Positions 3-64,000 are shown, counted from the stretch's first letter. The stretch: 64,000 bases of DNA from Barthelona sp. PCE (GCA_040285745.1 JAUFOR010000008.1:186001-250000); one strand, 5' to 3'. The notes: generated by a model from the sequence alone, not told the origin. Numbers and translations: made by a program.

Positions 3-1610
3 ACCGTAAGTGAAGTTTTCCAGACGGTCAATTTCGACGTTGCATTCCAGTGCTACGAGGGTTTATGCGAGCGCGTACTCGCTGATGGTAACTCCGGTGA
101 GTTGTGCGCCCTGTACGCCATCACTCGTCCCGTTACTATGTCTCTGACTAACTCAGAAAACAAAGAGGAAAGAGTGATGTTCATCAGTTCATTGCTGAGT
201 TTGGAGATCAGTAGCGACGATGAGGTGTATACTGTCGTTGGAGCTGCTTGGTCAAAGACCTTTCAGTACTTTTTGTCGTACTTTAAGCAGTACGAAATCG
301 ATGCCGTCCCTTACCTGGAGAATTGTATCACGCTTATCAAGGCTGGACTGCCCACACTGGATACGGTTATGGCCCGCTTCATTAGCCTCATAGACGTCAA
401 CTACGATATGTACGAGCAGCTGTTTTTCATGTTCACTGAGATAATCAGTCACAACACAATGATTAACAACCACTTCAAGGAGAGCGAGCTGGTCGACGAG
501 GACGAAGGTGTGTGTGAGCGCAAGAACTCAGGGTTGATCAAGTCGCTCGCCACTATATTGACGTTGGTGAAGATTGATGACTTTGAGGAACACGTTAACG
601 CTGCGCTTATTGTTGAAAATGATTTTGTTGAGACATACAAGCGTATCTCAGACTTTATCTCAAAGTGTACGATCCCCAACCCAGACGTAAGAGGCATCAT
701 TATCCCATTCGAACACATGAGCGAGTATGTTGTTAATCTGGTTAATATCATGATTGAGAGCTATGAGAGCGCTGATGACGAAGAAATGGAGAGCCTGCTG
801 TCTCTGAGAGACGCTGTCAAAAAGCTAATTGAAATATTTGGAAAAGACATGCCCCTATCGATCATCAAGGGTTTCACCAATATTCTGAAGGACATTGGCA
901 CGTGCGTCACTGCCCGCTACAGCCTCATGGTCTTGGATTGCTTCTTGAACAAGCATCTTGGTCCAGAATTCTTTGATGGATACTTCAGTGAATGCTATCA
1001 AGAACTGTTTGAGTTTGCTTGTGAGCTCTTCATGGAGAACTGCGACGGCAACTTCCTGGTTCCTGAGAACATTATTGGTGATGATGTTCGCGAGCTCATT
1101 GGATTAAAACGACAATTCGTAGCCACATTGGTTCGATTCCTTCGAGAGGGTGTTTTCGATAGCGTTGAGCTTGATGACAACTACTTCTTGTACAGAATGA
1201 TTGAGGGTGTCACTGAAAATTCGTGCAACACACTCCGTAAACAATGCCTGAATGGGTTGAGGGATTTGATGACATCCAGTGCAGAGAAAGGTGACTCAAC
1301 CTTCTTTGACATCGTTGCCACCACAGAAGTTATTTCGAGCATCTTCACCATCCCGTTTACAAAGGCCGACAAGAACACACACAGTTTTACCAGTATTTGC
1401 AGAATGATTGCCGATCTTTTTAGGACGCTATATACGTGCAACAATGATGTAGTTCAAGTAATTGGGCAGGTTATGACTGAGCTCGAAGAGTATAGCCAGA
1501 TGTCAGCGGAGATGTTTTGTGAGTATCTTGCCGATACCAAATTGTATCGTAAGAAGTGTAGTACTGCTATTCAGCGTGTTTACAAATCGTTAATGGAGGA
1601 GCGTGAATAA
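3..1610 (+). CDS. Hypothetical alpha-helical (ARM/HEAT-like) protein, 5'-truncated
   Basis: Frame is open from base 3 to TGA-free TAA end at 1610; helical, acidic composition; no motif recognised. Confidence 0.6.
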   Translation, partial: TVSEVFQTVNFDVAFQCYEGLCERVLADGNSGELCALYAITRPVTMSLTNSENKEERVMFISSLLSLEISSDDEVYTVVGAAWSKTFQYFLSYFKQYEIDAVPYLENCITLIKAGLPTLDTVMARFISLIDVNYDMYEQLFFMFTEIISHNTMINNHFKESELVDEDEGVCERKNSGLIKSLATILTLVKIDDFEEHVNAALIVENDFVETYKRISDFISKCTIPNPDVRGIIIPFEHMSEYVVNLVNIMIESYESADDEEMESLLSLRDAVKKLIEIFGKDMPLSIIKGFTNILKDIGTCVTARYSLMVLDCFLNKHLGPEFFDGYFSECYQELFEFACELFMENCDGNFLVPENIIGDDVRELIGLKRQFVATLVRFLREGVFDSVELDDNYFLYRMIEGVTENSCNTLRKQCLNGLRDLMTSSAEKGDSTFFDIVATTEVISSIFTIPFTKADKNTHSFTSICRMIADLFRTLYTCNNDVVQVIGQVMTELEEYSQMSAEMFCEYLADTKLYRKKCSTAIQRVYKSLMEERE

Positions 1611-18514: not shown

Positions 18515-20345
18515 TTAGTTCAAAATTGCTCCAAAAAGTTCATTAGCAGCTACACTAACCAGATTATCACTGTCACTCAAACAACCCTTAAGAGCTGGCA
18601 CTACCTGAGAAGCTAAAACGTTCTCAGGAATACACTGTGCCTTGTACATCTCATCGAGTAAACTAATTGTCTTTGCGCGAATATTGGGAATCTTATCATT
18701 AATGGCAGTGAATAGTACAGGGAGAACAGTTGTTGCTGTAACTCTGGGATCGAGAACTTTGCCTACTTCAACAATAGCACTATACACATTCATACGATAT
18801 AGATAGAAAGAAGAATTGGTCAAATCTAATAACAAGGGGAGCATTGTAGTAAGGCCCCATTCGCTACCAAAGTACTTGAGCAGCTCTGCAGTGATTTGAA
18901 CACCAGTCTCTCGAACAATTGCAACCTTGTCAACAAGAAGCGTCTGGTACACCTCGCTGAGTGTATGTGAGAAGTACTGTTCGCCAAATACATTGGCCAG
19001 TTTTGCGATTTCAAGGAAGAGAGAGTGACGAATACGCCATTTTGGGCACTTTTTCAAGCCAGAGATGCAGGGACCCAACGGGGTCTTCACGACATCTGTG
19101 CCAACAGTATCAACAAGAACATATATATTGGCGACAACAGCAAGCCTGACCTCAGGCGCATCGCACTGTAACAACTTCAAAACCTTGGGCAACAAAGAAG
19201 TTCTGCATTTCTGGACAGATAACTTGCTGCTTAGTAACACTACAACCTTTGCCATAGCCACATACACCTTCCAGAAATCTGGACCAGGGGTCTCTGAGAC
19301 CTCGGTGGGGAGCTCTTTCAGGTTGGGAACAATGTGGGCATCGATAGCCTCGGGGGAGAGGTGATCGCATACTGATAACAAGTGCTCGTGTGTGATAATG
19401 TGCACTTCTGGCTCTGTGTCCAGAAGCAGCGTGACAAATACGGGAAGAATACTTTCATAAAAGGCGCTTGGCAGAAATTTTCCCAAAATTCCAAAGGATT
19501 TGCCCAGTGCGAATCTAATACGCCAAGCAGTGTTCTTAAGAAGCTCAACGGTTGTCTCCACAACCCACTCGAAGGCGGGGTTACGTAAGGCAACAGGATA
19601 CTCGTTGTAACTTGCCATCTTAGCAATGGCCACCACTGCATCGAAGCTTTTAATCGCGACAGTGATAGTCTCATCTTTTGCCAGGTTTGTGATAAGGGGG
19701 GAGCATGTGCTGAACATAACATCCGCATTAATGGCACCAAGCACCTCGATTAATTTTGGTAACATGGTGGCAGCGGACTTTCTAACCATTGGAGATTCAT
19801 CAGAACAAAGCTTTGAGATCATACCCAACAACGACATCTGGTCTGCGCTCGTGAATTTTGAAAAAACAGATGCAAAAAGAAGTGAACTGGTTGCTCTGTT
19901 GACATACCATTTTGACTCAACAAGACGCTCGATAAGAGGTAAAAAGTGCTCTCTGATGGCGGCGCTGTCGAGCTGAACACCTAACTTACACAGTGAATTA
20001 GCTGCAACAATGCGAACGCTCTCTTCTTCTAACAAAGCTAATTTCTCAAGAACGGTAATGATCTTTGGGATGTGTGCTGGGCCTCCTACGTATTCTGTGA
20101 AGTCTCCAAGCTGTTCAGCAAGCGCTGCCAAGACTTCTTCGTTGATGTCCTCGGTTTTTTCTAGGTGTTAGGTATTCTTGCATTAAATTTCGTTGCATAC
20201 CATGTAGGAACGGCAGGAACTCTGTGCGAGTACGTGAAGCGCCTAAAGCCAAACTAATTGCCGAGATTTTCTTTACGGCATTAAGACGCAATCTGTAGTC
20301 CTCGTGATGAAGCTCGCTAATGAGGATTTGCAGTGGGTGAGTCAT
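18515..20345 (-). CDS. PPP2R1A: PP2A scaffold A subunit; exons 20345-20201 and 20160-18515
   Basis: [15 protein letters not shown] joins in frame to [12 protein letters not shown] after removing a 40-nt intron; HEAT repeats (PMVR, WRIR). Confidence 0.93.
20161..20200 (-). other. 40-nt spliceosomal intron
   Basis: GTATGC...CCTAACACCTAG; removal restores [12 protein letters not shown]. Confidence 0.92.
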
Positions 20346-30035: not shown

Positions 30036-30438
30036 AAAAAAAAACGTAGTAAAAATAAGATAATACTTTTTGGTCAATTTTACAAGAACTAATCCACTGG
30101 ATGTGAATAAATTTTGTTGTTTCAGCAATTTTAAACAAACCAATCCAGTGACAGCATCACCGATTCTATGATATTGATTCTGATCAAATATCGGTTATAT
30201 AAATGCACAAGATACGATAAACGTTAATATTGAAGCAACTAGAAGTGATGATGTGTTGATCAGCTCACAATCCAATGAGAAACACTCAATCTTTTCCTTC
30301 TCCTGTGAAGCAATAAAATAAAGCGCATTGTGATTCACAAATGCGTAAAAAACCACACATAATCGACAGATGTTAAGTTTTAAAAAGAGGCCATGTTTAA
30401 CATTTTTCTTCTCATATCAACGAACTTTGGGAATCATA

Positions 30439-32253
30439 ATGTTTGTATTCGAGAATTCATTCGAAGTAGCACTCAAGCTTGGTGGTATTTACACAGTTTT
30501 AAGAAGCAAAGTACCTGCACAGACTGCGGAACTTGGTGATAACTATTGTCTTGTTGGACAATACGAGGACGCCCCACACGAGATCGAGTTCGATGCCTGT
30601 GAAGCTGGTCCTGTCTGGCTCAACACGGCACTTGAAGATTTCAAAAAAACATACGGAATTGATTATGCTATCGGTAAATGGTTGATCACTGGTCGCCCCC
30701 TTGCAGTTCTTCTCCAGATCAAGAACAACATTAACCTTGACGAACTCAAAACAAGACTATACGAGCAACACAAATTGGAAACCCCAGAAACTGGTGTCGA
30801 TCCTCTCACAGACAAGGTAGTGATCTTCGGTGAGACGTTGCACCTCTTCTACCAAATCGTAATGAAGCACGCTCCAATGGACGTAGTAGCCCATTTCCAC
30901 GAGTGGATGACAGCCTCTTGTATGTGTGACCTGGCTCGTTTCGCACACCCCAAGCTCAAGACCGTCTTCACGACACACGCAACAATGATGTCTCGCTACC
31001 TCTGCGTTGCACGCGGACTTGACTTCTACATCAACCGTATTTTACACGCACATGATGAATACGACTGGGTCGATGATGCAAAGGAGTTCGGCATATACCC
31101 GCGTGTTCTCATCGAGTACAAAGCTGCGCATGCATGCAACGTATTCACAACTGTTTCGGAAATCACAGGAAAGGAGGCTCGTGTTGTCTTACACAGGCAA
31201 CCTGATTTCTTGCTCCCGAACGGTCTCAACATTTCAAAGTTCGAGATTCCGCACCATTTGCAGAACCTTCATCAGGAGAACAAGCACAAACTGCAAAAAT
31301 TCTGCACTTCGCATTTCTTCCCTTCGTATTCGTTTGATCTCGACAAGACCATGTTCTTTTTTACCTCTGGCCGCTTTGAGCCCCAAAACAAAGGATTTGA
31401 CTTCTGTATAGAATCAATGGCTCGTCTCAACTACCAAATGCAAGCTAATAACATCGATAAGACTGTTGTTTTCTTCATCGTCACTCGTACCCCCACAGAA
31501 AACGTGCTGCCCGACCTCCTCGAGCAGCGTGCTCTTTCTGATCAGATCGAAGAAACACTGAAGGATATTGGTGGACAAATATCAACCTCATTGTATGATC
31601 GTGTAATCCACGGCAGTCCTCTCTGTGACGATGGGTGCGGCAAGGGAAGCACCATTGCTGTCGAAAACCATATCTCAGAGACGAGTTGGCTGAAGTTAAG
31701 GAGATTACGTCATGCGTTCAACCGTGATGAACTACCGCCTGTAACCACTCATCGTCTTGTCAATGATAATGACGAGATCATCGAACAGATTCGCAAATGT
31801 CAGTTATTCAACAACGAGCATGATAAAGTCAAAATTATCTATCATCCAGATTTCATTAACAGTGCTTCACCGCTTTTCCAACTCGACTACTCCGACTTCG
31901 TCCGTGGATGCCACATGGGAATCTTCCCCTCCGCATATGAGCCGTGGGGACTCACACCTCCTGAGTGCGTTGTGTCATCAGTCCCATGCATCACCTCAGA
32001 TCTAGCTGGATTTGGTGCGTGGATGAAGAAATCATGCCCTGAACACGATAAATACGGTATCTATATCGCAGAGAGAAGCCGCCTTGGTGATGAAAAGGCA
32101 ATCGACCAAATGGTGGAAATTTTGATGAGATTCCTCTCACAAGATAGATGGGCACGTATCAAGCAACGTAACAAAGCTTTCGAGGCCTCCAAACTTTTCG
32201 GTTGGAATAGGCTTGTTAAGGACTATCTCCGTGCGTATGGTATGATCCAGTAA
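30439..32253 (+). CDS. Glycogen synthase, GT3 family
   Basis: EVALKLGGIYTV, HFHEW, FTTHAT, SGRFEPQNKG, PSAYEPWGLTP. Confidence 0.93.
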   Translation: MFVFENSFEVALKLGGIYTVLRSKVPAQTAELGDNYCLVGQYEDAPHEIEFDACEAGPVWLNTALEDFKKTYGIDYAIGKWLITGRPLAVLLQIKNNINLDELKTRLYEQHKLETPETGVDPLTDKVVIFGETLHLFYQIVMKHAPMDVVAHFHEWMTASCMCDLARFAHPKLKTVFTTHATMMSRYLCVARGLDFYINRILHAHDEYDWVDDAKEFGIYPRVLIEYKAAHACNVFTTVSEITGKEARVVLHRQPDFLLPNGLNISKFEIPHHLQNLHQENKHKLQKFCTSHFFPSYSFDLDKTMFFFTSGRFEPQNKGFDFCIESMARLNYQMQANNIDKTVVFFIVTRTPTENVLPDLLEQRALSDQIEETLKDIGGQISTSLYDRVIHGSPLCDDGCGKGSTIAVENHISETSWLKLRRLRHAFNRDELPPVTTHRLVNDNDEIIEQIRKCQLFNNEHDKVKIIYHPDFINSASPLFQLDYSDFVRGCHMGIFPSAYEPWGLTPPECVVSSVPCITSDLAGFGAWMKKSCPEHDKYGIYIAERSRLGDEKAIDQMVEILMRFLSQDRWARIKQRNKAFEASKLFGWNRLVKDYLRAYGMIQ

Positions 32254-54063: not shown

Positions 54064-55533
54064 TTAGTAACCATAAAAACGAGTGTTGCTTTGGAACAGG
54101 TTGGAATTATTATAACGACGGTTGTTTGTAGTACGACGTCTGGTTTGTTGTTGGAAACCTTGCTGGAAACCTTGAGCCATGCCACCCATAGCACTCATCA
54201 TCGAACCCATCATCGAACCAAGACCTGAGGCAAGTGTGTTGCTGCCATGCATAACGTTAGGATGCTGAGGCTGTTGAATTTGGAATGAAGTACCCTGCTG
54301 ATACTGGGGTTGTTGGTACTGGGGTTGTTGAGGTTGCTGGTATTGGGGTTGAGGCTGGTACTGGGGTTGAGGCTGGTACTGGGGTTGAGGCTGGTATTGA
54401 GGTTGAGGCTGTTGGTACTGAGGCTGGGGTTGGGGTTGATACTGAGGTTGAGTAGGATATTGAGGTTGAGTAGAATATTGAGGTTGTCCCATTGGTTGTC
54501 CCATGGGGTTGGGCATAAAACCTCCATCATCAGGCATGGTGAATCCCTGGTTCGACTGGGTCTGAGTGTTTCCACACTGAGCATTGAGGCTCCACATGTC
54601 AACAAAACCACCGTTCTGCATCATTGATGAAAAAGCATTCTCCATTGCCATAGTGGTGTTGTTTTTGGGCTTTTGCATGAGGGGATGGATCGGAACGGAA
54701 TTCTGAGGACCACGCTCGGTTGTAGTACCTTGACGAGGGCAAGAGAACTTGGGAACGGTGTCAAGGCTTGCCTGGAATGTAATCTGACCAACAGGGTTGT
54801 TTGCTTTATCAACAACGCTAATGTTGTACTGCTTGGGTTGTGTGGGGTCGGCAGGGATCTGATCAAACGTGAAAGTGGCCGTACCAAACTTTGAATCACT
54901 TATCATACCCTTGTCCATGATATCAATAACGAAGGGACGTGACTCCAGTTCTCTGAACGTGGTTGCGATCGTCAAAGGATTGATATATTGGAATTGGTAC
55001 ATTTGATAGTTACCAACCTTCTCAGATTCGACTGATACATTATCTTCCTGCTCACGATGAACCTTGAGGTAAAGATTGACAGCACGAGCAAGTTGGACAG
55101 CAACGTTAGATATACCAACGCGAGTCTCAGTGATAGCTTCAGCGATACACTTGAAACTGACACGACCCTGAACAAACTGAGCTTGGTGGTCTTGGGGCAT
55201 AAAGAGAGCCATAGATCTTTGCTCAGGAGCAAGGAGCATGGCCTCGACGGTGAGGACGCTCATTCCAATCATCTGATCCTTACCAAACTCCTGGTCAAGA
55301 CACACAATCTTAAAGAAAACTTCACCAATACGTTCTTCATCAACTTCAAACTCAAAAACGAACTTGTCGTCAAATTGAGCGGACAAACAACGCTTAATTG
55401 TCTTGGTCTTAAACTCTTGCAGACCGTTCTTTGCTTCTACAGAAAAAACAACATAAGGGTCACTTGTACCATCCTCATTACGAGGAGCAAGGTTAGAAAC
55501 AGAAATATTATCAAGGAAACAACGTACACGCAT
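54064..55533 (-). CDS. Tandem C2-domain protein with PQYQ-repeat tail
   Basis: DGTSDPYV, second C2 domain, QPQY repeats. Confidence 0.85.
   Translation of the reverse strand: MRVRCFLDNISVSNLAPRNEDGTSDPYVVFSVEAKNGLQEFKTKTIKRCLSAQFDDKFVFEFEVDEERIGEVFFKIVCLDQEFGKDQMIGMSVLTVEAMLLAPEQRSMALFMPQDHQAQFVQGRVSFKCIAEAITETRVGISNVAVQLARAVNLYLKVHREQEDNVSVESEKVGNYQMYQFQYINPLTIATTFRELESRPFVIDIMDKGMISDSKFGTATFTFDQIPADPTQPKQYNISVVDKANNPVGQITFQASLDTVPKFSCPRQGTTTERGPQNSVPIHPLMQKPKNNTTMAMENAFSSMMQNGGFVDMWSLNAQCGNTQTQSNQGFTMPDDGGFMPNPMGQPMGQPQYSTQPQYPTQPQYQPQPQPQYQQPQPQYQPQPQYQPQPQYQPQPQYQQPQQPQYQQPQYQQGTSFQIQQPQHPNVMHGSNTLASGLGSMMGSMMSAMGGMAQGFQQGFQQQTRRRTTNNRRYNNSNLFQSNTRFYGY
54295..54500 (-). repeat. Coding Gln/Pro/Tyr tandem repeat
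   Basis: CAACCCCAGTACCAGCCT-like 18-bp units. Confidence 0.85.
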
Positions 55534-55935
55534 AATAATGTTAATTAGATGAGGTTAGAAAAGGGTATTCAACGTATACTTGCTTCAAAGACATTTTCTT
55601 GTCAGCTACAGCAGATTTGTATCATATACTTGTCATTTCATGGATTTCATCGGTTGAAATCGGTTCTATTCTTGGTAAACTAAAAAATATTTGATTTCAA
55701 CAATTTTGCAATACACTCACTCGCAACCCCCTTGTAATAATGAAACAGCCATGATGGCGAGATGCAATTAGTTCTTTTGAAATAATAAAGAGGAATGGGC
55801 TTTATAGGAGTCAAGCACCATGTAAGAACTTTTACAGTACTCTATTGATTCAGAATATATTTTTTCAGTCAATTTTCAAGCCTCTTATCCATAAATTGTG
55901 AAAAATTGTGAAAAAAAAAAAATAGAAAATTTTAG

Positions 55936-56031: not shown

Positions 56032-56126
56032 AGAAATGATCAATAAAAAATTTCAACCGAACTTTATCATTAAAAAACCCACTCAAATTTTTCTAAATGG
56101 TACGCTTGTGAATAACTCATCCATGT

Positions 56127-56270
56127 TTATCCTCTATCCTACACCTTGGATGGTTTACTGAAGTGACAGCCTGCATGTTGGGAGGGCAGCAGAACTAAAC
56201 TGGGTACGGATCACGATACTGCCGCAGACTACGTATCCAGAGAGCCATGATTAACTGCTAACTATCTCAT
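56127..56270 (+). ncRNA. Unidentified structured RNA, copy 1
   Basis: Paralogue of 57691-57850 with a covarying stem. Confidence 0.55.
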
Positions 56271-56727
56271 TATTAAGAAAATATAATAAAAATATAATAA
56301 AAAACTTACCTGCGTTATAGGAAAAAAAAAATTCTTTACAGAAGTTATTAATATCCATTTAAATCATAACAAAAGATACATGACGTGGTGTTTAAACATA
56401 ATCTTGATTCACCATAGTTCCTTCCCTTACATGCAGCGGTAGTAAAGCCTGAAACTTTGATGATTTACAGAGATCTAAGTTTGGGTATGGTGCCACGAAG
56501 GGGTCACCGAGGTGGGTGTGCGGAAGTCCACAAATCCGACTCTCGATACTAATAAATAGGTATAAAATATACAAAAGAAAATAGGTAACCTTGATATAAG
56601 TGAACTAAGCTTGTAAATTTACTTCGGAGTTAGACACTTGTACGGGAGTTGCGAGCTCCCTCGAGTGCTATGCTTGCACTGAGAATTGTTCTAGAGCCCC
56701 TTTTTTTTAAAATAAAAGGGGAGAAAG

Positions 56728-56882
56728 AAATGATGCAAGTACTCACAGAGTACAAGAGGGAAGATCGCGTGTCTACTCCTCCAGTAGATTTACTCCTACG
56801 AAATAGCGTGTTATTCACAAGCGTGCCGCTTCGTGTTCCATTCTCTAATTGTTCATCAATCTGGGATCTTGAGGATCATTTT
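56728..56882 (+). ncRNA. Putative structured RNA ending in a T-run
   Basis: Terminal stem AAATGAT/ATCATTT; hairpins GTACTC/GAGTAC and TCTACT/AGTAGA. Confidence 0.35.
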
Positions 56883-57092
56883 TTTTTAAAAATAAAATTT
56901 TTTTAATAATAATAGATATATAAAATATTAGTAGTAATCATTTTTAATAAGGAGCTATTGCTTTTTTAGATACTAAAAACGTTATTACTATTTATTAAAA
57001 AAATATTTTCTTTAAGCAGGCAAACTTTCGAAATCAATATTTTGGTGACTTAAGAGATAATTACTAAATATTCGTTGAAAAAATTCCGAATA

Positions 57093-57173
57093 GCATGTAT
57101 GCGATAGCGGTTATTCGGTGCGCCTAGAAAGCGTGTGCCTCCGGGCTCCTAGGTTCAAATCCTAGTACATGCG
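57093..57173 (+). tRNA. tRNA-Ser(AGA)
   Basis: Acceptor GCATGTA/TACATGC, anticodon loop CT-AGA-AA, variable arm, CTAGG-TTCAAAT-CCTAG, TTTTT terminator. Confidence 0.93.
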
Positions 57174-57245
57174 TTTTTGCCAATTCAGAATTGTTTCCAC
57201 AAATAATTTAGAAACTTAAACATAATAATTGTTGATTTCCGTACA

Positions 57246-57316
57246 ACGCCTGTAGTTTAGTGGTAAAACTCATGGTTGCCATCCATGTGCCGGGGGTTCG
57301 ATTCCCCCCGGGTGTA
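57246..57316 (+). tRNA. tRNA-Gly(GCC)
   Basis: Acceptor ACGCCTG/CGGGTGT, CATGG-TTGCCAT-CCATG, GGGGG-TTCGATT-CCCCC, T-run. Confidence 0.93.
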
Positions 57317-57484
57317 CTTTTTTAGCTCACTTTTTGCGTGGTCTATCTTGGTCTGCCTTGGTCTAAAATAATTCAATGCAATCTTTTGTAGTCTGTGCAT
57401 ATTTTTATTAGTAATTCAACTTTTTTGAATGTCAACCAAATCATTACGACACATTCTTATTGTGCCAAAAAAACTATGCAAAAA

Positions 57485-57557
57485 TGAATGTGAGAAGAAT
57501 CGAACTCCCGGCCTCGTCGATGCTAACGACGCGCTACTACCACTGAGCTACACACTC
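57485..57557 (-). tRNA. tRNA-Ala(AGC), full length with a 1-nt D-arm insertion
   Basis: Acceptor GAGTGTG/CACATTC with G3:U70, CGTCG-TTAGCAT-CGACG, TTCGATT loop, TTTT after. Confidence 0.9.
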
Positions 57558-57690
57558 CAAACTCCAAATTGTTAGTTTGACGGAAAAGTTCAAGCCAAAG
57601 TGTCAAGTACCGTATTGGTTATTCACAATTTCCGGTCAGTTTTCTCCCCCATCTCACGTAATTAGAGGTTAAGTATATCGAAAATAGTGG

Positions 57691-57850
57691 TTATCCTCTA
57701 TCCTACACCTTGGATGGTTTACTGAAGTGACAGCCTGCATGTTGGGAGGGCAGACAGAACGAACCGTTAGACAGGACGGGTACGGATCAATCAAGATACC
57801 GCCGCACGCTACGTACCCGTAGAGCCATGATTAGTGGCTAACTGTCTCGC
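57691..57850 (+). ncRNA. Unidentified structured RNA, copy 2
   Basis: First ~60 nt identical to copy 1; perfect ACGGGTACG/CGTACCCGT stem. Confidence 0.55.
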
Positions 57851-57892
57851 TATTGAGAAAATATGATGAAATTTTTTGTAAAATTTCTTGAT

Positions 57893-58015
57893 AAAACTTA
57901 CCTGCGTTCTTTCTGCACTAGGATATAATTTATGCAGAAGATGATGAAAGACTTTCTTGGATAATCCAGCACAGAATGTGTGCGGAGTAGTTTTTTCCAA
58001 GCTCACGGAAAAACA
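57893..58015 (+). ncRNA. Possible divergent U1 snRNA
   Basis: ACTTACCTG followed by hairpin TTCTGCA/TGCAGAA, possible helix GCGTT/AATGT and a U-rich tract. Confidence 0.3.
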
Positions 58016-58212
58016 ACAAAAAGTTTCGAAGATTATGTTGAAATTTAACTTTCTGGTTTTTTGTCTTTTTTAATTTTTTGAATTCAGGAAAGAAATCGAA
58101 AAGCAGTTACTCGAGTCCGAGTAACTTAGCTAGGATTATTCTTTAACTCTCACTATCAGTGTATGTCATCTAGGTTTCGGGTGCATCAAGATTCCGATTG
58201 CCATCAACTACA

Positions 58213-61200
58213 TATAATCAAACGGTAGAGACCCACAGTTAGTTAAAAATTACTAATTAAACTTTTTTTTTTTTCAATAAATTTTACAACCCCTAAATTA
58301 ACTTATACAGCTTAATCATATACGCACACACAGTTACTGTACTATATATAACTCAAAAGCACTACTATTCTTTACTAATCGTTCATAGTTTTCTATGGGC
58401 ATTAGTAGCAAATGGCCTCCACCAAAACTTTTGAAAAGGTAGCAGTGCTCCCGGCCTCGTCGATGCTAACGACGCGCTCTACCACTGAGCTACACACTCC
58501 AAACTCCAAATTGTTAGTTTGACGGAAAAGTTCAAGCCAAAGTGTCAAGTACCGTATTGGTTATTCACAATTTCCGGTCAGTTTTCTCCCCCATCTCACG
58601 TAATTAGAGGTTAAGTATATCGAAAATAGTGGTATAATCAAACGGTAGAGACCCACAGTTAGTTAAAAATTACTAATTAAACTTTTTTTTTTTTCAATGA
58701 ATTTTACAACCCCTAAATTAACTTATACAGCTTAATCATATACGCACACACAGTTACTGTACTATATATAACTCAAAAGCACTACTATTCTTTACTAATC
58801 GTTCATAGTTTTCTATGGGCATTAGTAGCAAATGGCCTCCACCAAAACTTTTGAAAAGGTAGCAGTGCTCCCGGCCTCGTCGATGCTAACGACGCGCTCT
58901 ACCACTGAGCTACACACTCCAAACTCCAAATTGTTAGTTTGACGGAAAAGTTCAAGCCAAAGTGTCAAGTACCGTATTGGTTATTCACAATTTCCGGTCA
59001 GTTTTCTCCCCCATCTCACGTAATTAGAGGTTAAGTATACTGAAAATAGTGGAGTGATCAAACGATAGAGACCCACAGTTAGTTAAAAATTACTAATTAA
59101 ACTTTTTTTTTTTTCAATGAATTTTACAACCCCTAAATTAACTTATACAGCTTAATCATATACGCACACACAGTTACTGTACTATATATAACTCAAAAGC
59201 ACTACTATTCTTTACTAATCGTTCATAGTTTTCTATGGGCATTAGTAGCAAATGGCCTCCACCAAAACTTTTGAAAAGGTAGCAGTGCTCCCGGCCTCGT
59301 CGATGCTAACGACGCGCTCTACCACTGAGCTACACACTCCAAACTCCAAATTGTTAGTTTGACGGAAAAGTTCAAGCCAAAGTGTCAAGTACCGTATTGG
59401 TTATTCACAATTTCCGGTCAGTTTTCTCCCCATCTCACGTAATTAGAGGTTAAGTATATCGAAAATAGTGGTATAATCAAACGGTAGAGACCCACAGTTA
59501 GTTAAAAATTACTAATTAAACTTTTTTTTTTTCAATAAATTTTACAACCCCCTAAATTAACTTATACAGCTTAATCATATACGCACACACAGTTACTGTA
59601 CTATATATAACTCAAAAGCACTACTATTCTTTACTAATCGTTCATAGTTTTCTATGGGCATTAGTAGCAAATGGCCTCCACCAAAACTTTTGAAAGGTAG
59701 CAGTGCTCCCGGCCTCGTCGATGCTAACGACGCGCTACTACCACTGAGCTACACACTCAAACTCCAAATTGTTAGTTTGACGGAAAAGTTCAAGCCAAAG
59801 TGTCAAGTACCGTATTGGTTATTCACAATTTCCGGTCAGTTTTCTCCCCCATCTCACGTAATTAGAGGTTAAGTATATCGAAAATAGTGGTATAATCAAA
59901 CGGTAGAGACCCACAGTTAGTTAAAAATTACTAATTAAACTTTTTTTTTTTCAATAAATTTTACAACCCCTAAATTAACTTATACAGCTTAATCATATAC
60001 GCACACACAGTTACTGTACTATATATAACCAAAAAAGCACTACTATTCTTTACTAATCGTTCATAGTTTTCTATGGGCATTAGTAGCAAATGGCCTCCAC
60101 CAAAACTTTTTGAAAAGGTAGCAGTGCTCCCGGCCTCGTCGATGCTAACGACGCGCTCTACCACTGAGCTACACACTCCAAACTCCAAATTGTTAGTTTG
60201 ACGGAAAAGTTCAAGCCAAAGTGTCAAGTACCGTATTGGTTATTCACAATTTCCGGTCAGTTTTCTCCCCCATCTCACGTAATTAGAGGTTAAGTATATC
60301 GAAAATAGTGGTATAATCAAACGGTAGAGACCCACAGTTAGTTAAAAATTACTAATTAAACTTTTTTTTTTTTCAATGAATTTTACAACCCCTAAATTAA
60401 CTTATACAGCTTAATCATATACGCACACACAGTTACTGTACTATATATAACTCAAAAGCACTACTATTCTTTACTAATCGTTCATAGTTTTCTATGGGCA
60501 TTAGTAGCAAATGGCCTCCACCAAAACTTTTGAAAAGGTAGCAGTGCTCCCGGCCTCGTCGATGCTAACGACGCGCTCTACCACTGAGCTACACACTCCA
60601 AACTCCAAATTGTTAGTTTGACGGAAAAGTTCAAGCCAAAGTGTCAAGTACCGTATTGGTTATTCACAATTTCCGGTCAGTTTTCTCCCCATCTCACGTA
60701 ATTAGAGGTTAAGTATATCGAAAATAGTGGTATAATCAAACGGTAGAGACCCACAGTTAGTTAAAAATTACTAATTAAACTTTTTTTTTTCAATAAATTT
60801 TACAACCCCTAAATTAACTTATACAGCTTAATCATATACGCACACACAGTTACTGTACTATATATAACTCAAAAGCACTACTATTCTTTTACTAATCGTT
60901 CATAGTTTTCTATGGGCATTAGTAGCAAATGGCCTCCACCAAAACTTTTGAAAAGGTAGCAGTGCTCCCGGCCTCGTCGATGCTAACGACGCGCTCTACC
61001 ACTGAGCTACACACTCCAAACTCCAAATTGTTAGTTTGACGGAAAAGTTCAAGCCAAAGTGTCAAGTACCGTATTGGTTATTCACAATTTCCGGTCAGTT
61101 TTCTCCCCCATCTCACGTAATTAGAGGTTAAGTATATCGAAAATAGTGGTATAATCAAACGGTAGAGACCCACAGTTAGTTAAAAATTACTAATTAAACT

Positions 61201-64000
61201 TTTTTTTTTTTCAATGAATTTTACAACCCCTAAATTAACTTATACAGCTTAATCATATACGCACACACAGTTACTGTACTATATATAACTCAAAAGCACT
61301 ACTATTCTTTTACTAATCGTTCATAGTTTTCTATGGGCATTAGTAGCAAATGGCCTCCACCAAAACTTTTTGAAAGGTAGCAGTGCTCCCGGCCTCGTCG
61401 ATGCTAACGACGCGCTCTACCACTGAGCTACACACTCCAAACTACAAATTGTTAGTTTGACGGAAAAGTTCAAGCCAAAGTGTCAAGTACCGTATTGGTT
61501 ATTCACAATTTCCGGTCAGTTTTCTCCCCCATCTCACGTAATTAGAGGTTAAGTATATCGAAAATAGTGGTATAATCAAACGGTAGAGACCCACAGTTAG
61601 TTAAAAATTACTAATTAAACTTTTTTTTTTTTCAATGAATTTTACAACCCCTAAATTAACTTATACAGCTTAATCATATACGCACACACAGTTACTGTAC
61701 TATATATAACTCAAAAGCACTACTATTCTTTACTAATCGTTCATAGTTTTCTATGGGCATTAGTAGCAAATGGCCTCCACCAAAACTTTTGAAAGGTAGC
61801 AGTGCTCCCGGCCTCGTCGATGCTAACGACGCGCTCTACCACTGAGCTACACACTCCAAACTCCAAATTGTTAGTTTGACGGAAAAGTTCAAGCCAAAGT
61901 GTCAAGTACCGTATTGGTTATTCACAATTTCCGGTCAGTTTTCTCCCCCATCTCACGTAATTAGAGGTTAAGTATATCGAAAATAGTGGTATAATCAAAC
62001 GGTAGAGACCCACAGTTAGTTAAAAATTACTAATTAAACTTTTTTTTTTTTCAATAAATTTTACAACCCCTAAATTAACTTATACAGCTTAATCATATAC
62101 GCACACACAGTTACTGTACTATATATAACTCAAAAGCACTACTATTCTTTACTAATCGTTCATAGTTTTCTATGGGCATTAGTAGCAAATGGCCTCCACC
62201 AAAACTTTTGAAAAGGTAGCAGTGCTCCCGGCCTCGTCGATGCTAACGACGCGCTACTACCACTGAGCTACACACTCCAAACTCCAAATTGTTAGTTTGA
62301 CGGAAAAGTTCAAGCCAAAGTGTCAAGTACCGTATTGGTTATTCACAATTTCCGGTCAGTTTTCTCCCCCATCTCACGTAATTAGAGGTTAAGTATATCG
62401 AAAATAGTGGTATAATCAAACGGTAGAGACCCACAGTTAGTTAAAAATTACTAATTAAACTTTTTTTTTTTTCAATAAATTTTACAACCCCTAAATTAAC
62501 TTATACAGCTTAATCATATACGCACACACAGTTACTGTACTATATATAACTCAAAAGCACTACTATTCTTTACTAATCGTTCATAGTTTTCTATGGGCAT
62601 TAGTAGCAAATGGCCTCCACCAAAACTTTTGAAAAGGTAGCAGTGCTCCCGGCCTCGTCGATGCTAACGACGCGCTCTACCACTGAGCTACACACTCCAA
62701 ACTCCAAATTGTTAGTTTGACGGAAAAGTTCAAGCCAAAGTGTCAAGTACCGTATTGGTTATTCACAATTTCCGGTCAGTTTTTCTCCCCCATCTCACGT
62801 AATTAGAGGTTAAGTATATCGAAAATAGTGGTATAATCAAACGGTAGAGACCCACAGTTAGTTAAAAATTACTAATTAAACTTTTTTTTTTTTCAATAAA
62901 TTTTACAACCCCTAAATTAACTTATACAGCTTAATCATATACGCACACACAGTTACTGTACTATATATAACTCAAAAGCACTACTATTCTTTACTAATCG
63001 TTCATAGTTTTCTATGGGCATTAGTAGCAAATGGCCTCCACCAAAACTTTTGAAAAGGTAGCAGTGCTCCCGGCCTCGTCGATGCTAACGACGCGCTCTA
63101 CCACTGAGCTACACACTCCAAACTCCAAATTGTTAGTTTGACGGAAAAGTTCAAGCCAAAGTGTCAAGTACCGTATTGGTTATTCACAATTTCCGGTCAG
63201 TTTTCTCCCCCATCTCACGTAATTAGAGGTTAAGTATATCGAAAATAGTGGTATAATCAAACGGTAGAGACCCACAGTTAGTTAAAAATTACTAATTAAA
63301 CTTTTTTTTTTTTCAATAAATTTTACAACCCCTAAATTAACTTATACAGCTTAATCATATACGCACACACAGTTACTGTACTATATATAACTCAAAAGCA
63401 CTACTATTCTTTACTAATCGTTCATAGTTTTCTATGGGCATTAGTAGCAAATGGCCTCCACCAAAACTTTTTTGAAAAGGTAGCAGTGCTCCCGGCCTCG
63501 TCGATGCTAACGACGCGCTCTACCACTGAGCTACACACTCCAAACTCCAAATTGTTAGTTTGACGGAAAAGTTCAAGCCAAAGTGTCAAGTACCGTATTG
63601 GTTATTCACAATTTCCGGTCAGTTTTCTCCCCATCTCACGTAATTAGAGGTTAAGTATATCGAAAATAGTGGTATAATCAAACGGTAGAGACCCACAGTT
63701 AGTTAAAAATTACTAATTAAACTTTTTTTTTTTTTCAATAAATTTTACAACCCCTAAATTAACTTATACAGCTTAATCATATACGCACACACAGTTACTG
63801 TACTATATATAACTCAAAAGCACTACTATTCTTTACTAATCGTTCATAGTTTTCTATGGGCATTAGTAGCAAATGGCCTCCACCAAAACTTTTGAAAAGG
63901 TAGCAGTGCTCCCGGCCTCGTCGATGCTAACGACGCGCTCTACCACTGAGCTACACACTCCAAACTCCAAATTGTTAGTTTGACGGAAAAGTTCAAGCCA
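58213..64000. repeat. Tandem array of ~420-bp units (about 13.8 copies, runs off the window)
   Basis: Near-identical units; AGCAGTGCTCCCGG recurs 14 times between 58441 and 63902. Confidence 0.98.
58448..58499 (-). pseudogene. 3'-truncated tRNA-Ala(AGC), first of 14 array copies
   Basis: 52 nt matching tRNA-Ala through the 5' T-stem; T-loop and 3' acceptor strand replaced by CACTGCTACCTTTT. Confidence 0.9.

Follow-up and report, generated by a model that had tools for sequence, protein, structure and literature searches.

A duplicated element with a pairing-preserving hairpin beside a satellite array of Barthelona sp. PCE: putative genes for a small structured RNA

Near the right end of a 64,000-nt stretch of nuclear DNA from Barthelona sp. 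PCE (GCA_040285745.1, JAUFOR010000008.1:186001-250000; this whole stretch is called the window), an element of about 200 bp occurs twice. Are the two copies genes for a structured RNA, or pieces of duplicated DNA with no function of their own? The initial annotation had described them as a duplicated RNA of no assignable family, in which a stem changes its sequence and keeps its pairing. The reading tentatively preferred here is that the copies may be paralogous plus-strand genes for a putative small structured RNA of no described family, located in a cluster of non-coding RNA genes. The parts of the element are as follows.

56124-56318, plus strand: copy 1, about 195 bp (blastn, alignment)
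57688-57908, plus strand: copy 2, about 221 bp (blastn, alignment)
56127-56189, the same as 57691-57753, plus strand: identical block of 63 nt (direct reading, alignment)
56134-56153 (copy 2: 57698-57717), plus strand: hairpin A, CTATCC / GGATGG with the 8-nt loop TACACCTT, inside the identical block
56200-56240, plus strand: hairpin B of copy 1, 9-bp stem CTGGGTACG (56200-56208) / CGTATCCAG (56232-56240) with one G-T pair
57776-57820, plus strand: hairpin B of copy 2, perfect 9-bp stem ACGGGTACG (57776-57784) / CGTACCCGT (57812-57820), 100% complementary
56241-56269 (copy 2: 57821-57850), plus strand: conserved 3' segment AGAGCCATGATTA...GCTAACT.TCTC (alignment)
56270-56303 (copy 2: 57851-57895), plus strand: AT-rich, poorly conserved spacer with a 12-nt indel (alignment)
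56304-56312 (copy 2: 57896-57904), plus strand: ACTTACCTG, at the right end of the repeat and part of the 16-nt identical island AAAACTTACCTGCGTT

The copies are direct repeats with an offset of 1564 bp, in agreement with the 1.56 kb given initially. Segments 56124-56316 and 57688-57908 align over 221 columns with 76.9% identity (blastn, E 9e-41), and no third copy was found in the 64 kb (blastn, word size 7, E<=1). A 33-nt core of the element occurs exactly twice in the window, against none in 100 shuffles. The homology ends sharply: the right flanks align no better than shuffled sequences (476 of 500 shuffles score as high), and the alignment of the left flanks is marginal (34 of 500). No open reading frame (ORF) is common to the two copies; the longest stop-to-stop frames are short and different in each. 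The indels between the copies are 12 nt in the linker and 4 nt in the loop of hairpin B, the latter an ATCA duplication. Within the range first annotated, indels are thus confined to linker and loop, as had been claimed; a further 12-nt indel lies just past that range, in the AT-rich tail, and the repeat itself runs on to the ACTTACCTG island.

The 5' block, initially put at about 60 nt, is 63 nt long by direct reading, and a repeat-family search recovers it as 66 nt at 98%. Outside the block and the stem, 83 of 110 aligned sites match and 27 do not (d=0.245, ~75% identity). At this local divergence the chance of an identical run of 63 nt is 0.755^63, or ~2e-8; the identity is not a matter of chance and needs either selection or gene conversion. 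The shorter identical islands (13 and 16 nt) and the runs in the 3' segment are compatible with chance at 75% identity. Hairpin A lies inside the block and can show no covariation because the copies are identical there.

Covariation is found in hairpin B. Its stem is fully paired in both copies despite five differences, which change C-G to A-T, T-A to C-G, and G-T to G-C; these are the two double substitutions and the single G-U to G-C change of the initial annotation, and the 9-bp stems are complementary at the positions that it gave. The loop is 23 nt in copy 1, where it starts with GATCACGA, and 27 nt in copy 2, where it contains ATCAAGA. Of 400,000 neutral simulations at d=0.245, 2.49% left all nine base pairs of the stem intact; among those with exactly five changes (n=78,857) the share was 0.36%. 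These values apply to a stem picked after looking and to two sequences.

The hairpins are also strand-specific. Folded alone, hairpin A has a z-score of -2.20 on the plus strand (7 of 200 shuffles as stable) versus -0.18 on the minus strand. Hairpin B gives -2.10 (8/200) and -1.09 (31/200) in copy 1, and -2.23 (5/200) and -1.04 (33/200) in copy 2, on the plus and minus strands respectively. The difference arises because the G-T pair in the stem of copy 1 and the T-G pair of hairpin A become A-C mismatches on the minus strand. This strand-specific stability is better explained by a plus-strand RNA than by a DNA palindrome or by an RNA from the minus strand.

The suggestion of a small RNA gene therefore draws on several observations: a stem whose pairing survives five differences (P 0.025; 0.0036 given five); hairpins A and B more stable than shuffled sequences on the plus strand only; a 63-nt block that is identical against ~75% elsewhere; no shared ORF, with indels of 4 and 12 nt in loop and linker; and a setting in a gene-free stretch with transfer RNA (tRNA) genes and a structured, Sm-site-bearing stretch. 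The RNA would be ~145-195 nt long, starting at ~56127 or 57691 and ending between 56270 and 56318 (copy 2: 57850-57908). The invariant 5' block with hairpin A might be its working surface, either a binding platform or an antisense element for an RNA or a protein. Hairpin B would serve as a scaffold in which pairing matters and sequence does not, and the linkers would be free to vary. Three tRNAs and a possible U1-like gene would be the other members of the cluster. The duplicated segment would have consisted of the RNA gene, a spacer and 13 nt of the next gene, possibly one for a small nuclear RNA (snRNA), with the RNA gene kept in both places. From these features we infer that the element is transcribed, where its RNA would end and how it would act.

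A number of observations weigh against an RNA gene. The whole element folds no better than shuffled sequences (z +0.79 and -0.93 on the plus strand, +1.47 and +0.22 on the minus strand). RNAalifold and minimum-free-energy folding find no other helix common to both copies, and the predicted long-range helices differ. The covariation is limited to one helix in two sequences. Both double changes affect neighbouring pairs at the base of the hairpin B stem, beside the 12-nt indel, and a single template-switch mutation in a DNA quasi-palindrome could be the source of both. The identical block could be a recent gene-conversion tract and owe nothing to selection, and a satellite junction falls at the left end of copy 2, a hint that a rearrangement at the level of DNA had its boundary there. 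No promoter, terminator, Sm site or box motif is recognisable in both copies; the spacer of copy 2 holds a TGATGA and a T6 run, both missing in copy 1. Relatives are also lacking: a 28-nt core has no match in metagenome contigs, and a 17-nt 5' segment matches 31 metagenome loci, about the number expected by chance, none of which is like the element beyond 17-35 nt. Searches of E. coli genomes gave no match to the element (blastn, E<=10). The original claim of an RNA with compensatory changes is thus supported in part: the pairing-preserving substitutions stand and are joined by plus-strand hairpin stability, while the RNA interpretation is weakened by the fold of the whole element and by a single covarying helix whose double changes one template switch could explain.

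The surroundings of the copies bear on both possibilities. Barthelona sp. PCE is a deep-branching metamonad of a lineage sister to Fornicata, and its genome, of 10.2 Mb in 8 contigs with 40.3% G+C and 4.46% repeats (Table 1), is described as the smallest reported for any free-living eukaryote (PMC11316075). The window, part of a 2.17-Mb contig, is dense in long ORFs up to a gene-free stretch of at least 8.4 kb, which follows a C2-domain ORF and reaches the window end. The G+C content of this stretch is 0.36-0.37 versus ~0.43 elsewhere in the window. Its order is copy 1, ~770 bp of featureless sequence, three tRNA genes, copy 2, a structured stretch and a satellite.

54064-55554, minus strand: C2-domain protein, last ORF before the gene-free stretch
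57093-57173, plus strand: tRNA-Ser(AGA) (Rfam, ARAGORN)
57246-57317, plus strand: tRNA-Gly(GCC) (Rfam, ARAGORN)
57485-57557, minus strand: tRNA-Ala(AGC) (Rfam, ARAGORN)
57896-58135, plus strand: structured stretch of 240 nt, after copy 2 only, starting with ACTTACCTG; z -2.84 (1/200)
58072-58081, plus strand: Sm-like AATTTTTTGA, in the structured stretch
58105-58126, plus strand: 9-bp terminal hairpin, in the structured stretch
58213-64000: tandem satellite of 421 bp, at least 13.8 units, 98% identity, starting ~300 bp from copy 2 and running off the window

A 3'-truncated copy of tRNA-Ala(AGC) and 133 nt of its flanking sequence are present in every satellite unit. The sequence in common with these units (blastn) extends 4 nt into the left end of copy 2 (57688-57691), and copy 2 looks like a 521-bp insert relative to a satellite unit. 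The segment 58213-58275 and every unit contain ~50 nt followed by a T11-T12 run, and in the units the distance of this segment to the tRNA-Ala fragment equals that of copy 2 to the intact tRNA-Ala gene. The satellite array may lie at a centromere or in a subtelomere. At 56693-56725, between copy 1 and tRNA-Ser, the palindrome GAGCCCCTTTTTTTT AAAATAAAAGGGGAG forms a hairpin with T and A runs on either side, resembling a two-way terminator.

The ORFs of the window encode ordinary eukaryotic housekeeping proteins by Pfam, for example Prp9/SF3a60, Sec24, Hsp70, glycogen synthase and PP2A subunit A. A protein match identifies the PP2A-A product with a recorded hypothetical protein of Barthelona sp. 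PCE, whose next relatives are only 24-30% identical. The closest database relatives of the glycogen synthase (30349-32253, plus strand) are 40-44% identical, with none above 44%, and are mostly bacterial enzymes of the Bacteroidota type (Cytophagales, Hymenobacter, Spirosoma) rather than eukaryotic ones, which could reflect gene transfer or deep divergence. Tandem repeats of 15 and 18 nt at 54302-54486 (minus strand), inside the C2-domain ORF 54064-55554, would encode a repeat rich in Gln, Pro and Tyr.

The right edge of the repeat leads into a candidate for another gene. ACTTACCTG is the canonical U1 5'-end sequence or, equally, the complement of the consensus 5' splice site. It has three exact matches in the window versus 0.32 expected (at least three in 1 of 100 shuffles); the third lies inside a coding ORF and is followed by no intron signals. 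In copy 2 it heads the 240-nt structured stretch with its Sm-like motif and terminal hairpin. The matching stretch after copy 1 is not structured (z +0.99). On these sequence features 57896-58135 is possibly a divergent U1-like snRNA gene, and its link to the repeat is uncertain. A separate feature is seen at 56467-56508 (plus strand), where ACAGAGA (56467-56473) is followed by the hairpin GGTGCC/GGTCACC, with one bulged T and a loop containing CACGAAGG (56489-56508), a sequence that matches the loop of human U1 stem-loop I. This combination has no AGC triad and no Rfam match, and may be due to chance.

Which other histories would account for the two copies? A modest share of the probability goes to DNA-level events alone: the copies could be non-functional segmental duplicates in repeat-rich, possibly pericentromeric DNA, where a ~200-bp piece was copied beside the satellite array, one end was kept identical by gene conversion, and the stem was changed by a quasi-palindrome template switch or by chance. 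The sharp ends of homology, the 4-nt overlap of copy 2 with the satellite-homology end, an array of at least 13.8 units of 421 bp beginning 300 bp away, the low regional G+C (0.36-0.37 against ~0.43), the lack of a significant whole-element fold and the adjacent double changes bordering an indel all agree with such a history, and yeast centromeres with ~200-bp repeats in large gene-free regions offer an analogy from another lineage (PMC12711049). It sits poorly with a genome that is only 4.46% repetitive (PMC11316075, Table 1), with hairpin stability on one strand, which a DNA palindrome does not predict, and with 9-bp pairing intact after five changes, which is unlikely in the absence of constraint. 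A mobile-element relic would share the discrete ~200-bp unit and its sharp ends: a solo long terminal repeat (LTR) or non-autonomous element might have inserted near the tRNA genes, the stem being an RNA structure selected while the element was active. Both copies do start with TG, copy 2 appears as a 521-bp insert relative to the satellite unit, and it has an imperfect inverted match TGGTTATCC ... GGATAATCCA (57688-57696 / 57961-57970). This origin is decidedly improbable given that neither copy has a target-site duplication (the flanks AATAG/GCACA and ATCCA/TTTAA differ), that the homology ends in ...CTGCGTT with no CA end at the boundary, that copy 1 has no terminal inverted repeat, that 0 of the 29 large ORFs scanned against Pfam match a reverse transcriptase, integrase or transposase, and that there are only two copies in 64 kb of a very repeat-poor genome (PMC11316075, Table 1).

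Two further explanations keep an RNA in the picture and move it or reverse it. The repeat might comprise the first 13 nt of a U1-like snRNA gene and the region upstream of it, with copy 2 the intact locus (snRNA 57896-58135) and copy 1 a partial duplicate retaining a relic ACTTACCTG island; the hairpin would then belong to a promoter element, or to a distinct RNA from the upstream side that is produced along with the snRNA. A canonical U1 5' end exactly heads a 240-nt stretch with z -2.84, the Sm-like AATTTTTTGA and a terminal hairpin, an AT-rich stretch lies directly upstream, and a 16-nt identical island has a probability of ~0.3 by chance at 75% identity, so that copy 1 need not function there. 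Giardia U1 starts ACUUAC (PMC3510501), in keeping with such a 5' end. Such a locus is nonetheless unlikely. No snRNA model matches it (E<=10 on 561 nt), the fold is even stronger on the minus strand (z -4.16, 0/200), and nothing structured follows copy 1. In a dead copy of a promoter the stem would have lost its pairing, and we know of no precedent for a conserved promoter of 200 nt that contains a hairpin. Read on the minus strand, the same edge becomes AACGCAG/GTAAGT (down from 56318; 57910 in copy 2), a possible 5' splice site. The transcript would be a spliced non-coding RNA, with the AT-rich 49 or 61 nt that follow as a short intron and the conserved part as its second exon. Both copies retain a perfect 9-nt splice-donor consensus, the interior is intron-like in being AT-rich and variable in length (49 vs 61 nt) between conserved flanks, and there are TATA-like runs on this strand 20-45 nt upstream. 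The introns of the host argue otherwise. The PP2A-A intron (20161-20200, minus strand), confirmed by the annotated protein, is 40 nt long and reads GTATGC...CCTAACACCTAG, and a second likely intron (97-156, plus strand) reads GTGAGT...GACTAACTCAG; both have the branch point fused to the acceptor (CTAAC, 2-5 nt, AG), a style described for Giardia introns (PMC3510501). The candidate at the element has the donor and lacks the host branch/acceptor motif, containing only CTTAAT/CTCAAT and no CTAAC near an AG. As this strand shows no significant hairpins, the upstream 'exon' lacks conservation and the 9-mer also occurs by chance inside a coding ORF, a minus-strand transcript appears improbable. A regular-expression scan for introns was swamped with in-frame false positives.

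Should the preferred plus-strand RNA gene be transcribed, its product would either be specific to the lineage or represent a universal RNA (spliceosomal or nucleolar) in very divergent form, and would help to chart how far such RNAs drift in metamonads. Poly(A) selection was used for the published RNA-seq (PMC11316075), which may fail to capture RNAs of this kind. If it is not transcribed, the element marks the edge of a satellite array, maybe of a centromere. A streamlined genome would be unlikely to retain as junk a duplicated element with an invariant 63-nt block and a compensated hairpin. Among the Barthelona papers listed, judged from titles and abstract openings, no description of its non-coding RNAs was found, and the term 'snRNA' does not occur in PMC11316075.

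How does the element compare with RNAs of known families? Rfam 15 was searched with the whole window at gathering scores, and, under relaxed filters and a threshold of E<=10, with a 4-kb segment and four shorter ones, covering both copies and their flanks. Only tRNAs reach the gathering score in the window, and the permissive searches give chance-level matches, in keeping with the initial statement that no known family could be assigned; for 57896-58135 there is likewise no match, U1, U11 and any other snRNA included (E<=10 on 561 nt). The blank result is weak evidence, since in a metamonad that branches so deeply Rfam may overlook even RNAs of known kinds. In its metamonad relative Giardia, the spliceosomal RNAs (PMC3510501) and the nucleolar RNAs were too divergent for standard detection.

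Several families were considered and set aside. A tRNA-like cloverleaf is absent from the element, ARAGORN finding only the three tRNAs outside it. For telomerase RNA, a 17-nt pattern of the telomere repeat, which is TATATGGTCT (PMC11316075), was sought on both strands of the window with 3 mismatches allowed, and no match was found. A U6-like core (ACAGAGA, 4-6 nt, AGC) has a single match in the window, inside a coding ORF. Box H/ACA motifs were looked for by eye on both strands: the copies have no ANANNA in common after hairpin B, nor is an ACA conserved where the 3' end might plausibly lie. U2-like readings exist on the minus strand (GUGUAGGA) and at 57988-57995 (GAGUAGUU), and each shows perfect pairing to the branch site in just one of the two introns seen, too small a number for a decision.

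Box C/D small nucleolar RNAs (snoRNAs) are resembled in part. CUGA (56158-56161) and UGAUUA (56248-56253) recall D' and C' boxes in the right order, and UCCUCUAUCCUACA matches 13 of 14 positions of the segment after the C box of Giardia GlsR10 (RF02478). The GlsR10 match, however, is at chance level (12.3 bits, E 8.9). The C box RUGAUGA at the 5' end, the D box CUGA at the 3' end and the terminal stem were not seen by eye in both copies: the only CUGA precedes the only UGAUNA, there is no upstream C box and no downstream CUGA in both copies, the flanks form neither a terminal stem nor a kink-turn pairing, and at ~150-195 nt the element is twice the usual size. The GlsR10 resemblance led to a test of complementarity to ribosomal RNA (rRNA), a check also proposed initially. 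A box C/D RNA would have an antisense element of 10-21 nt that ends beside a D or D' box. Against the E. coli rRNAs (16S/23S/5S, rrnH operon) the longest antisense match is 11 nt (23S 2110-2120), no more than in shuffles, 34 of 200 of which reach at least 11. None of the 31 metagenome loci with the exact 17-mer resembles E. coli 16S/23S or is rRNA.

Among the spliceosomal RNAs, U4 base-pairs with the conserved U6 parts AAGGAU and UUAGCAUGGC, with hairpins between the pairing segments. In the element the 5' AUCCU and GCCAUG...GCUAAC could pair with these parts, and its hairpins lie between the pairing segments in the general U4 layout. Unlike in U4 or U4atac, no kink-turn could be built, there is no Rfam match, and a Sm-like run occurs in copy 2 only: by eye, a Sm site (RAU3-6GR) near the 3' end is not common to the copies, and the AAATTTTTTGT of copy 2 (57866-57876) lies in an indel that has no counterpart in copy 1.

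The likeness to U1 (RF00003) and U11 involves more parts. The plus strand of the element carries ACUUACCUG, and the loop of hairpin B starts with GAUCACGA in copy 1 or holds AUCAAGA in copy 2, to be compared with the U1-70K site AUCACGAA and the conserved loop AUCARGA of U11 stem-loop III (PMC3510501). The small hairpin loop UACACCUU loosely recalls the U1A-site loops UGCACUC and CACAUAC (PMC3510501). The arrangement differs. ACUUACCU, at the 5' end in U1, stands at the 3' edge of the conserved unit here and at the 5' end only in the candidate 57896-58135; the hairpin B loop, of 23-27 nt, lies upstream of this motif; and there is no Sm site common to the copies, no cloverleaf or junction predicted in common, and no covariance-model match at E<=10. 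It is highly improbable that the copies encode a rearranged U1-type particle RNA, with an AUCA(C/A)GA loop and with ACUUACCUG at the 3' end or moved to the 5' end by permuted-precursor processing. If true, this arrangement would mean that a deep-branching eukaryote recognises 5' splice sites by a new architecture. The U1/U11, U4 and U2 resemblances all concern short motifs that were noticed post hoc and whose order or context is wrong; they would serve as leads only.

Outside the RNA families, the nearest parallel is with the 200-bp motifs linked to yeast centromeres and with Ty5 LTR relics, in Kuraishia capsulata and Wickerhamomyces canadensis. Although the host here is a metamonad, and the element has no LTR ends, primer-binding site or retroelement genes, the yeast loci and the Barthelona locus are alike in carrying a ~200-bp repeat in a large, G+C-poor, gene-free region (PMC3879985; PMC12711049).

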